Positions 2,765 through 3,787 of a stretch of DNA of 64,000 nt are shown here, one piece after another; within the stretch, counting starts at the first letter, position 1; each line of letters begins with the position of its first letter. A model generated the notes under the pieces. The model made no database searches. It saw nothing but the letters and a program-made list of their open reading frames with translations, and was not told where the DNA came from. A program made the position numbers and the translations under genes. Origin of the DNA: Thermoanaerobaculia bacterium (lineage in GTDB: Bacteria > Acidobacteriota > Thermoanaerobaculia > Multivoradales > Multivoraceae); assembly GCA_963666565.1 (NCBI GenBank), contig OY762911.1:2592001-2656000 (forward strand), given 5' to 3'.

Positions 2765-3421
2765 TTGGCCGCTGATCCCGTCGTGGAAGAGGTTCGACGG
2801 CTTCTTCCAGAGGTGACAGTGAGTGGCGGTTCCTTTGCGCGTTCGCTGCCTCCTCTGGCTCGGACTGGCCGAGAGAATCGAGTCGAGGAACTGCGACGCG
2901 TGAAGAGAGTCGCCACCGCCTGTTGTCTCGTCGACCTCCTAAGGGGTGCCGGACTACCGGCCGTTGAACCCACTCGACGGGTCTCTGGGGAGAGGGTGTG
3001 GCCTTCGGGCTTCATGGGCAGTGTCAGCCACAAAGGCACCAAGGTCGTAGCCGTGCTCGCGCCATCGCGTGCCTTCGATGGCGTAGGAGTGGACATCGAG
3101 GCTGCCGAGCCAGGGGATCTGATGCGCGTTAGATCCCTCCGAACGGCACCCGATCTTCCGCCGGGTCTGCACCCCCGTCTTGCAGTAGCGGTCCTCTTCT
3201 CCGTCAAGGAGGCCGCCTTCAAAGCCCTTTTCCCGTTGGTGAGGGAGAGGATGACGTTCGAGGACGTCGTGGTGCGATGGTCGGCTGGCGGCGTGGACGG
3301 GGTGCTCCATGGAACTTCGGTCTTCCGTCGGGTTTCGATCGAGGTCCGCTGCTCGACGGGAGTTCCAGACTGGGTCGTCTCTTGTGCCCTAGCACAGAGG
3401 GGCATAGTAGGCTGTGTTTGA
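2765..3421 (+). CDS. 4'-phosphopantetheinyl transferase (EntD/Sfp type); start uncertain (ORF open from 2579; TTG 2765 or GTG 2783 more plausible)
   Basis: VWPSGFMGSVSH, GVGVDIE and LFSVKEAAFKALFP motifs. Confidence 0.85.
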   Translation: MAADPVVEEVRRLLPEVTVSGGSFARSLPPLARTGRENRVEELRRVKRVATACCLVDLLRGAGLPAVEPTRRVSGERVWPSGFMGSVSHKGTKVVAVLAPSRAFDGVGVDIEAAEPGDLMRVRSLRTAPDLPPGLHPRLAVAVLFSVKEAAFKALFPLVRERMTFEDVVVRWSAGGVDGVLHGTSVFRRVSIEVRCSTGVPDWVVSCALAQRGIVGCV

Positions 3422-3445
3422 AATTCGGACGCCATCGTGTAGACT
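3418..3445 (+). promoter_or_regulatory. Possible sigma70-type promoter upstream of the ACP-like gene
   Basis: TTGAAA (3418-3423) - 16 nt - TAGACT (3440-3445), 36 nt before ATG 3482. Confidence 0.35.
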
Positions 3446-3481
3446 GTGCCGAAGTCGAACGGACGATGTGGAGCGAGAGCT

Positions 3482-3787
3482 ATGGCCCAGGACCATCGCA
3501 AGGCTGAGCTAGAGCGGCGAGTACGGGAGGCGTTGGCGGAGAAACTCCGGGACTGGGACGAGCTTGTTCGGGATGGCGTTACGGGTGAGGTGGACCATGA
3601 ACACGCCGACGCTTGGGGGTCGATGCCCGTGATCGACTCAAAGGTCGTGGTCGAGCTCGTCCCGGTCTTCGAGGACGTTCTCGGTTGCGACTTCGACCTC
3701 AAGCTCATACGTGCCGGCGGTTACAACAGCGAAGATGAACTGGTCGCGGAACTGATCCCTGCGGTTCTTGAGGCAGCCGCACGGTGA
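3482..3787 (+). CDS. Acyl-carrier-protein-like small acidic protein
   Basis: 101 aa, acidic; IDSKVVVELVPVFEDVLGCDF...YNSEDELVAEL fits the ACP helix II pattern DSx..vEl...lEd.fg with a candidate Ppant serine; adjacent to a PPTase; GGAG upstream of ATG 3482. Confidence 0.65.
   Translation: MAQDHRKAELERRVREALAEKLRDWDELVRDGVTGEVDHEHADAWGSMPVIDSKVVVELVPVFEDVLGCDFDLKLIRAGGYNSEDELVAELIPAVLEAAAR

Follow-up and report, generated by a model that had tools for sequence, protein, structure and literature searches.

In a 64,000-nucleotide stretch of contig OY762911.1 from a Thermoanaerobaculia bacterium (positions 2,592,001 to 2,656,000 of the forward strand; hereafter the window), a gene for a stand-alone 4'-phosphopantetheinyl transferase (PPTase) is followed by a gene for a small acidic protein that resembles an acyl carrier protein (ACP). 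This PPTase-carrier pair is real, intact and conserved; it is not an orphan but belongs, as a fixed unit, to an uncharacterised cassette of defence islands that is widely mobile. We propose, with moderate confidence in the reading as a whole, that the two proteins are enzyme and substrate within a mobile seven-gene cassette and that the thiol of the holo-carrier would serve a cassette enzyme. [quoted passage not shown] The two genes are:

2765..3421, + strand, Sfp/EntD/PptT-type PPTase, 218 residues (assigned by Pfam, a PDB profile search and motifs)
3482..3787, + strand, divergent acyl-carrier-like protein, 101 residues, isoelectric point 4.5 (assigned by family profile, AlphaFold2 model and VIA structure search)

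The carrier motif and the type of PPTase vary together

The window carrier reads D52-S53-K54 (codons 3635-3643) in place of the usual DSL, and Ser53 (codon 3638-3640) is the predicted acceptor of the 4'-phosphopantetheine (Ppant) arm. In an alignment of 99 of the 100 family representatives, D52 and S53 are invariant (99/99), and the residue following the serine is Lys in 93 sequences, Leu in four, Ile in one and Met in one. Relatives of the cassette were collected from two samples. A metagenome scan with the peptide pattern MPx[VI]DSKAV returned 30 contigs with the cassette order (38-70% GC), and because the pattern contains DSK these loci are biased towards DSK carriers. The second, unbiased sample consists of plasmids found by tblastn with another cassette protein, an M78 metallopeptidase fused to a chagasin-type I42 inhibitor domain (M78::I42); 16 plasmid records matched, of which ten were examined. 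The comparison of motif and PPTase type covers 43 loci in total, 30 of them chosen through the DSK pattern.

DSK carriers are accompanied by an adjoining Sfp-type PPTase in 25 of the 26 metagenome loci with room for one and in 5/5 genome or plasmid loci. Specifically, 25 of the 30 metagenome contigs have the PPTase immediately upstream of the carrier, and four of the other five have less than 230 nt of upstream sequence; the 26 loci with room are those with at least 500 nt upstream. The same arrangement is found in the genome records L003, L004 and L009 and on a Haloarcula plasmid, which encodes a DSK carrier with an Sfp-type PPTase directly upstream. In all ten plasmid cassettes a carrier-family gene stands directly before the helix-turn-helix (HTH) gene (family hidden Markov model E 1e-35 to 2e-8). 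Carriers with DSL or DSM (n=9) have an AcpS-type PPTase in 3/9 cases and none in 6/9. In particular, two Bradyrhizobium plasmids and one Rhizobium plasmid carry DSL carriers with an AcpS-type PPTase divergently upstream; this enzyme has 128 residues, matches Pfam ACPS only and is annotated as holo-ACP synthase, a non-orthologous replacement of the Sfp-type enzyme. No PPTase lies within 3.5-6 kb of the DSL or DSM carriers encoded on plasmids of Sphingomonas, Sphingobium, Sinorhizobium, Acuticoccus, Sulfitobacter and Burkholderia. The idea, raised in a first-pass annotation of this DNA, that homologous cassettes keep the PPTase thus holds for DSK carriers, all but one of which have an Sfp-type enzyme, but fails for six of the ten plasmid cassettes, all of them with DSL or DSM.

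The co-variation supports an enzyme-substrate link, since it is what would be expected if the serine is phosphopantetheinylated and the lysine alters PPTase specificity. We regard it as our strongest evidence and find it hard to explain except by modification of the serine together with Lys-dependent specificity. The DSK site would probably need its own transferase, and canonical-motif carriers without a PPTase of their own presumably rely on a host enzyme. We consider it highly probable that the window PPTase converts the carrier to its holo form at Ser53. The resulting rule, DSK with Sfp-type and DSL with AcpS-type or no PPTase, is a simple, testable statement on PPTase specificity.

The PPTase is intact and forms a branch of its own

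The PPTase reading frame is open from 2579 to 3421 on the + strand, and a start at TTG 2765 yields the 218-residue protein. Because 20 cassette PPTase homologues (211-236 residues) give alignments that begin at this codon, TTG 2765, also the choice of the first-pass annotation, is the likely start. The window protein matches Pfam ACPS (PF01648) with 28.7 bits (cut-off 25) and 4PPT_N (PF17837) with 27.5 bits (cut-off 27); when started at 2765 it scores 29.6 and 28.1 bits, respectively, both above the gathering scores. Its nearest solved structures are mycobacterial PptT and EntD (PDB, E 1.4e-9). The motifs WPxGxxGSxSHK, GVDIE and FSVKEAAFK are readable and conserved across the 20 cassette PPTases, the first of them reading WPSGFMGSVSHK in the window, and in the alignment to PptT the catalytic and Mg/coenzyme A (CoA)-binding motifs (GSxSH; GxDxE; KEA...K) are all present. 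W79, P80, G85, S86, K90, G108, D110, E112, K148, E149 and K153 are invariant among the 20 sequences. H89 is nearly so, L016 having Asp: its PPTase (L016:9219-9878) reads GSVTDKAT, with Asp instead of the His of GSxSHK. The Sfp/EntD-type assignment of the first-pass annotation is therefore borne out by profiles, structure matches and intact motifs alike. In comparisons with the NCBIfam equivalogs PptT, Npt and EntD, the protein reaches 42, 39 and 29 bits, where the cut-offs are 365, 370 and 169, and is not a member of any of the three; because it lies so far under these cut-offs, we place it on its own branch of the Sfp-type superfamily. Compared with the L003 copy, at dS ~0.4, the PPTase shows a dN/dS of 0.29 and the carrier one of 0.19, which indicates purifying selection on both genes.

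A role of the cassette PPTase as the housekeeping enzyme of the genome was considered and rejected, given a second Sfp-type PPTase at ~3.80 Mb. This 265-residue enzyme (C1:3796619-3796873 of G000; L001:1354-2151) is the only other PPTase match in the genome, and its motifs read RWPEGVVGSISH, GVDVE and FSAKESAYKA. As a Pfam ACPS search of the genome found no AcpS-type enzyme, the second Sfp-type PPTase presumably serves AcpP.

The small protein is probably a very divergent carrier

The carrier ATG at 3482 lies 60 bases 3' of the PPTase gene, its homologues align from this ATG, and the reading frame stops at 3787. The protein has 24 Asp/Glu against 12 Lys/Arg, which agrees with the earlier description of a 101-residue acidic protein with DSK for DSL. 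Its family is rare: when 1.84 billion cluster representatives were searched exhaustively with HMMER, 100 relatives reached E <= 0.001, and nearly all of these have 80-180 residues. Besides the Asp-Ser pair, P49 is kept in 96/99 members, and a family signature, G79-G80-Y81, in 96-98 of the 99. Ten representatives that were looked up are annotated as 'hypothetical protein' or nameless, one of them coming from a Halobacteriales metagenome-assembled genome (MAG). An additional word-indexed protein search with the family alignment returned nine proteins and nothing new, a scan of a viral contig collection found no relatives, and the carrier is unmatched in the NCBIfam and PADLOC profile sets. An assignment to DUF5805 was rejected: the N-terminal helix scores 28.4 bits, just short of the 28.5 cut-off, and the profile is matched by 3/99 members only, as expected of a compositional match to a charged helix.

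Searches with the family profile give weak matches to carrier proteins. Against PDB, the profile aligns with the ACP-type entries 2n98 and 2lki (E ~0.05), the DS falling on the Asp-Ser of the Ppant site. An hhalign comparison with 16 AcpP sequences from related genomes again places DS on DS (E 0.0015 over 25 columns), with a probability of just 17%. Additionally, ACP clusters make up 5/30 of the ESM Atlas neighbours (score 0.91). The AlphaFold2 model, built from the 99-sequence alignment, has a mean predicted local distance difference test score (pLDDT) of 85 and a predicted template modelling score (pTM) of 0.70. It is composed of helix I (2-31), a loop, helix II (53-67), a short turn (73-75) and helix IV (84-100), and helix II begins exactly at Ser53. 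Carrier proteins account for 14 of the 30 weak Foldseek rows and lead the list of the VIA structure search with Z 5.8-4.0 (6kxf_C 5.8, BlmI 5.2, AntF 5.1), a range below Z 8 that the tool warns is common for helical models. The best VIA match, at Z 5.8, covers 64 residues with a root-mean-square deviation of 2.6 Å, and at least 18 of the 50 best rows are titled acyl or peptidyl carrier protein. Taken alone, these sequence and structure comparisons suggest that the small protein is probably a very divergent carrier; with its invariant Asp-Ser and with carrier proteins heading the structural matches at modest Z, the carrier-like character seen in the first pass stands.

The 60-nt spacer between the two genes contains a sigma-70-like promoter match, TTGAAA-16-TAGACT (3418-3445, + strand), which is a consensus match only; within 2000-8000, two promoter-like sites were found against 0.6 expected from shuffles. 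Given this match, the carrier and the downstream genes may be transcribed separately from the PPTase.

The pair opens a mobile seven-gene cassette

The cassette has the order PPTase, carrier, XRE, M78::chagasin-like inhibitor, papain-like C1 peptidase, thymidylate-synthase-fold (TS-fold) enzyme and MazG::MazG_C. Downstream of the pair, the window contains:

3815..4162, + strand, XRE-family HTH repressor, CapH-like (Pfam HTH_31, 1.5e-13; PADLOC capH, 6.4e-9)
4149..5144, + strand, ImmA/IrrE (M78) metallopeptidase, CapP-like, fused to a chagasin-type (I42) cysteine-protease inhibitor domain (Pfam Peptidase_M78, 1.6e-11; Inhibitor_I42, 3.2e-8; PADLOC capP, 1.1e-15)
5141..5770, + strand, papain-family (C1) cysteine peptidase, mature domain only (Pfam Peptidase_C1; its ATG overlaps the M78::I42 stop)
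5767..6546, + strand, TS-fold enzyme, strongly diverged (Foldseek search with the AlphaFold2 model)
6543..7643, + strand, MazG nucleoside triphosphate pyrophosphohydrolase fused to MazG_C (Pfam MazG_C, 4.2e-76; MazG, 8e-6)

These final five genes overlap by 4-14 nt, the XRE and M78 genes by 14 nt, and all seven window genes match the lengths of their homologues. The HExxH motif of the M78 domain reads HELGH. The C1 profile finds Der f 1, ficin and cathepsin K in PDB (E 1e-17 to 1e-15), and Q20, C26, H156, N176 and W178 are invariant in 13 C1 sequences. In L035 (1981-3585), M78, I42 and C1 are fused in one open reading frame (ORF) of 534 residues, and such a Rosetta-stone fusion hints that the adjoining peptidase is the target of the inhibitor domain. 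The TS-fold protein scores 22.7 bits in Pfam, under the 24.3 cut-off, and a PDB sequence search gave zero matches. A Foldseek search with its AlphaFold2 model (pLDDT 83) retrieves thymidylate synthases together with the phage dCMP hydroxylase AfhB (E ~5e-9, probability 1.00). Cys173, Arg193 and Asn204 are conserved in the alignment of relatives; from our own reading of that alignment and ThyA numbering, we take the Cys of PCLSH to be the nucleophile, the Arg-Ser to be the phosphate site and the Asn to be the uracil reader.

The cassette order also occurs in the congeneric MAG and genome records L003 (shortened) and L004 and in L009, from another acidobacterial family. In the metagenome contigs, an XRE gene follows the carrier in 25/25 loci with sequence at that position, and M78 is present in 18 of the 30 contigs, C1 in 12, TS in nine and MazG in seven, as far as the contigs extend. 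In one database protein (P0084), the PPTase domains and the carrier domain form a single chain. The distribution is sporadic, the carrier family being present in 2/401 sampled Acidobacteriota genomes and in 0/9 genomes of the same genus. Of the 16 matched plasmid records, 11 are predicted to be conjugative; their hosts are Alpha- and Betaproteobacteria and the archaeon Haloarcula marina. Since cultivable Alphaproteobacteria have the cassette on conjugative plasmids, and an archaeon has it too, work on it need not depend on the uncultured host of the window. In L004 and L009 the third-position GC of the cassette is 0.62-0.84 and that of the flanking genes 0.84-0.98, and this lower value is consistent with recent import.

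Synthase genes lie outside the window

Six-frame Pfam searches of the whole 4.79-Mb genome gave five ketoacyl-synt, 19 AMP-binding and one Acyl_transf_1 matches. None of the ketosynthase, AMP-binding or acyltransferase matches falls inside the window (genome 2592001-2656000), and the closest synthase-type match is an AMP-binding gene at genome 2671973, 16 kb past the window end. The earlier statement that ketosynthase, adenylation and acyltransferase genes are missing nearby is thus correct for the entire window. A six-frame search of the genome with PF00550 matched three places elsewhere and left the cassette carrier gene unmatched.

The cassette is embedded in a defence island

The window cassette is flanked by known defence genes, in accordance with the defence-island setting recognised in the first pass, with HEC-01 on one side and DISARM DrmMI and DrmD on the other:

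220-2017, - strand, HEC-01 (PADLOC)
2088-2591, HTH gene
7683-11708, - strand, DISARM DrmMI (PADLOC)
11750-15088, - strand, DISARM DrmD (PADLOC)

DrmA, which extends into window positions 1-251, and DrmB sit just before the window start. Because DrmMI and DrmD lie on one side and DrmA and DrmB on the other, HEC-01, the HTH gene and the cassette are nested within a DISARM locus; L004 shows the same DISARM-nested layout. Known defence genes flank the cassette in 4/4 unrelated long loci. DrmA/DrmB and IetA adjoin it in L009, from another family. Its neighbours in L036 are a DUF1156-methyltransferase/DUF3780/DUF499 system, IetA/IetS and ShosA/ShosT, those in L021 a type II methyltransferase and a mad3-like ATPase, and that in L016 a PD-T4-6-like kinase. 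On plasmids, genes annotated close to the cassette encode, among others, a Shedu nuclease, a DUF499 protein, an AbiEii toxin and a caspase-family protein. In the part of the window from 15 to 30 kb, PADLOC matched none of 14 long ORFs, some of them possibly in wrong frames. From gene content and neighbourhood, we judge it likely that the cassette is an inducible anti-phage system.

Relation to known systems

The pair shares with type II carrier systems a two-domain PPTase with WPxGxxGSxSH, GxDxE and KEA motifs, and with stand-alone acyl or peptidyl carriers a helical acidic protein of ~100 residues, Asp-Ser at the start of helix II and the best structural matches. Unlike type II carrier systems, the cassette has no synthase, adenylation or acyltransferase partner. 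Unlike known carriers, its small protein lacks a Pfam PP-binding match, has DSK for DSL in 93/99 members and bears an extra GGY motif, and unlike known PPTase-carrier pairs, the two genes stand under an XRE/M78 switch in defence islands. 10-Formyltetrahydrofolate dehydrogenase (ALDH1L1), a eukaryotic multidomain folate/one-carbon enzyme, has an internal Ppant carrier domain, and this domain is among the VIA matches of the cassette carrier (2cq8, Z 4.9; 7rlt, Z 4.8). ALDH1L1 offers a precedent, by analogy only, for a Ppant arm serving a folate/one-carbon enzyme outside lipid, polyketide and peptide synthesis, but it has no TS-fold relation and no link to immunity. Full-text literature searches, with subscription-only papers outside their coverage, found no published description of a PPTase or carrier in such a cassette.

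The adjacent XRE HTH and M78 genes, the latter with HExxH, correspond to CapH/CapP of CBASS and other defence operons and to ImmR/ImmA. In contrast to CapH/CapP, the cassette M78 protein bears a C-terminal chagasin-type inhibitor and is translationally coupled to a papain-like peptidase, and CBASS genes are missing from the cassette.

Two further systems share parts with the wider cassette family; they are described here from the available parts of PMC13092281 and PMC8989533. DS-4 ('NTTI', DefensePredictor) protected E. coli from phages (PMC13092281). Its genes, according to the supplementary tables, encode a TS, a deoxynucleoside monophosphate kinase and three further proteins, of the HMUDK_hel, TIR and Nmad2 types (PMC13092281). 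The cassette resembles DS-4 in its TS-family gene, and in relatives HMUDK_hel and Nmad2 genes also stand beside it; both systems are presumably pyrimidine-directed. By contrast, a PPTase, a carrier, an XRE/M78 switch, a chagasin-like lock and a papain-like peptidase are all missing from DS-4 as listed in those tables. The window cassette itself has only the TS-fold gene in common with the DS-4 set and does not belong to it: a Pfam scan of the window proteins found neither TIR nor Nmad2, and HMUDK_hel gave no match in the window (phmmer) or in the genome, the latter in a search in which control genomes also went unmatched, so that phmmer is the more reliable of the two. MazG and MazG-C are listed in PMC13092281 as predicted, unvalidated defence domains.

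The second system, phage thymidine hypermodification, comprises 5-hmdU kinase, aGPT-Pplase and amino-acid:DNA transferases and, unlike the cassette, consists of phage counter-defence pathways (PMC8989533). Parts common to it and the wider cassette family are the TS-fold, a nucleotide pyrophosphatase or kinase, HMUDK_hel, Nmad2 and a dCTP-deaminase-like protein. One thymidine-hypermodifying enzyme forms an exocyclic C5-methylene intermediate to which the thiol beta-mercaptoethanol is reported to add, and the terms 'carrier protein' and 'phosphopantethein' occur 0 times in the available text (PMC8989533). The cassette joins a CapH/CapP-like switch, a protease with a built-in chagasin-type inhibitor and a pyrimidine module related to both DNA hypermodification and DS-4.

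Proposed mechanism and alternatives

In the mechanism that we propose, the XRE/M78 pair would hold the operon off until a signal arrives; cleavage of the XRE repressor on a DNA-damage or infection signal, of the CapH/CapP type, is suggested by family only. The Sfp-type PPTase would transfer Ppant from CoA to Ser53 of the carrier, the I42 domain would lock the papain-like peptidase, and the MazG/TS-fold module would act on pyrimidine nucleotides. The holo-carrier would then give a protein-tethered thiol arm to a cassette enzyme, with the TS-fold enzyme ranked first and the papain-like peptidase second. Sfp-type enzymes can install acyl-Ppant from acyl-CoA; given the lack of a loading enzyme, either the free thiol would be the reagent or an acyl-Ppant would be installed directly from acyl-CoA. 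The TS-fold enzyme is ranked first because TS-fold and related enzymes make an electrophilic C5-methylene and a thiol can add to an intermediate of this kind (PMC8989533, available part), and with this client the thiol would be a nucleophile or a carrier at the activated C5 position. By this analogy the TS-fold enzyme is a tentative candidate for the client of the carrier, and a holo-carrier working with the TS-like enzyme seems the most plausible of the three mechanisms offered in the first pass, ahead of a decoy or sensor carrier and of a PPTase reaction that drains CoA or releases a signal. We would go further only speculatively, to a dedicated Ppant carrier that functions within an inducible anti-phage system and whose thiol takes part, as a covalent nucleophile or as a carrier, in pyrimidine C5 chemistry through a TS-fold or HMUDK_hel-type partner, the product being a protein-linked nucleotide or a DNA-protein adduct; we hold this extension to be unlikely. 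If true, the thiol-arm/pyrimidine reading would be a carrier-protein role outside lipid, polyketide, peptide and one-carbon metabolism. Ser53, with the single mass shift predicted for it, provides a ready experimental handle.

Several results weigh against the proposed enzyme-substrate module. On the side of the carrier, Pfam PP-binding (PF00550) gives zero matches up to E 10, just 1/99 family members matches that profile (E 0.0016), and Foldseek of the model against PDB returned nothing at E <= 0.001; the low hhalign probability and the VIA scores below Z 8 point in the same direction. On the side of the cassette, no loading enzyme (adenylation or acyltransferase) was found in any cassette examined, L033 has a carrier gene and zero PPTase in 969 nt upstream, six plasmid cassettes are likewise without a nearby PPTase, and the metagenome loci carry the DSK bias of their search pattern. 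No PADLOC (2023) model matches the PPTase, carrier, C1, TS-fold or MazG protein. Finally, L035 has PPTase, carrier, XRE and the fused M78::I42::C1 gene, with TS and MazG absent from its 5.8 kb, which speaks against the TS-fold enzyme being an obligatory client of the carrier and points to the protease module.

The alternative that survives best follows from this last observation. The carrier might work with the protease switch, either by accepting an acyl or peptidyl group from a C1 thioester or by activating or inhibiting C1 or the M78::I42 lock, which would leave TS-fold and MazG as separable effectors. In some natural-product pathways, Ppant thioesters are substrates of papain-fold enzymes, among them transglutaminase homologues and enzymes of the arylamine N-acetyltransferase type; the catalytic Gln, Cys, His and Asn of C1 are invariant, and the carrier-to-C1 block is constant where the cassette end varies (L010, L036 and the plasmids); after the minimal set of L035, which includes neither TS nor MazG, comes an unrelated PNKP-type gene in convergent orientation. 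This minimal form, however, is confined to a single lineage (L034/L035) whose contigs measure 4-6 kb, and its TS and MazG genes could therefore lie elsewhere; moreover, C1 is close to true proteases (cathepsin K, ficin) and adjoins a chagasin-type inhibitor, which argues for proteolysis and not for acyl transfer. We regard a carrier that acts on the protease switch as rather improbable.

Still less probable is that the small protein is never modified and is a helical regulator or adaptor that merely resembles a carrier, the PPTase acting elsewhere or being a passenger. Such a role would account for the missing Pfam PP-binding and significant Foldseek matches, the unusual Lys following the Ser and the 6/10 plasmid cassettes without a nearby PPTase. 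It fits poorly with an Asp-Ser kept in 99/99 members, a serine at the N-terminus of helix II and the dominance of carrier proteins in the Foldseek and VIA lists. Nor would it account for a PPTase with conserved catalytic residues that adjoins the carrier in 25/26 loci, for the PPTase::carrier fusion, or for the replacement of the Sfp-type by an AcpS-type enzyme exactly where the motif is DSL.

A comparably low probability attaches to a non-immune cassette, that is, an inducible metabolic or biosynthetic module for a modified pyrimidine nucleotide, an antimetabolite or modification of the DNA of the mobile element itself. TS-like hydroxymethylases occur in nucleoside-antibiotic clusters, and many copies of the cassette reside on conjugative plasmids, which could protect themselves with such a module. 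TS-fold, MazG, kinases, dCTP-deaminase-like, UDG-family, HMUDK_hel and Nmad2 proteins are moreover the parts of phage base hypermodification, as far as the available text of PMC8989533 describes it. Against a non-immune role stand the known defence neighbours in the window and in the 4/4 unrelated long loci, the CapH/CapP-like switch, the sporadic distribution and the absence of a transporter or resistance gene from the cassette; phage protection was also conferred on E. coli by DS-4, a system with TS, HMUDK_hel and Nmad2 parts in common with the cassette family (PMC13092281, available part).

Nothing specific favours the remaining options, a carrier that is a decoy or guard against phage proteins hitting the host ACP or a PPTase reaction that is itself the output (CoA drain or a 3',5'-ADP signal), and we consider them very improbable: retention of a divergent ACP look-alike by an immune locus would be consistent with guarding, but the carrier is so unlike host AcpP (the hhalign comparison above) that it would be a poor mimic, and the PPTase reaction is stoichiometric with the carrier, has no recycling phosphodiesterase beside it, fits poorly as an output with an invariant acceptor Ser and cannot be the output of those cassettes that have no PPTase of their own.

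Variation at the cassette end

While the block from carrier to C1 is constant across loci, the cassette end varies. The final gene differs between loci, with a thymidylate kinase replacing MazG in L010 and a second TS in L036. HMUDK_hel genes accompany the cassette in 11/33 loci and on the Haloarcula plasmid, and Nmad2 in L009; other extras among the relatives are a dCTP-deaminase-like gene and, on plasmids, a uracil-DNA-glycosylase (UDG)-family gene. The window copy has none of these extras (HMUDK_hel, Nmad2, dCTP-deaminase-like, thymidylate kinase, second TS or UDG-family).

Individual loci show further rearrangements. In L003 (4033-5841), the M78 gene is 59% of the window protein and overlaps a 495-residue DrmMI fragment on the opposite strand, and C1, TS and MazG are missing, an apparent deletion or assembly join. 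In L009 (11887-16195; genome G073), the TS-fold gene is shortened (34% coverage) and its remnant is followed by a DDE transposase of an insertion sequence, an unassigned 214-residue ORF and the Nmad2 gene, after which MazG resumes. In the plasmid loci L070, L072 and L074-L079, the TS-like gene is followed by a convergent UDG-family gene and MazG::MazG_C, and in the proteobacterial plasmid version a metallophosphoesterase or dCTP deaminase is frequently close by.

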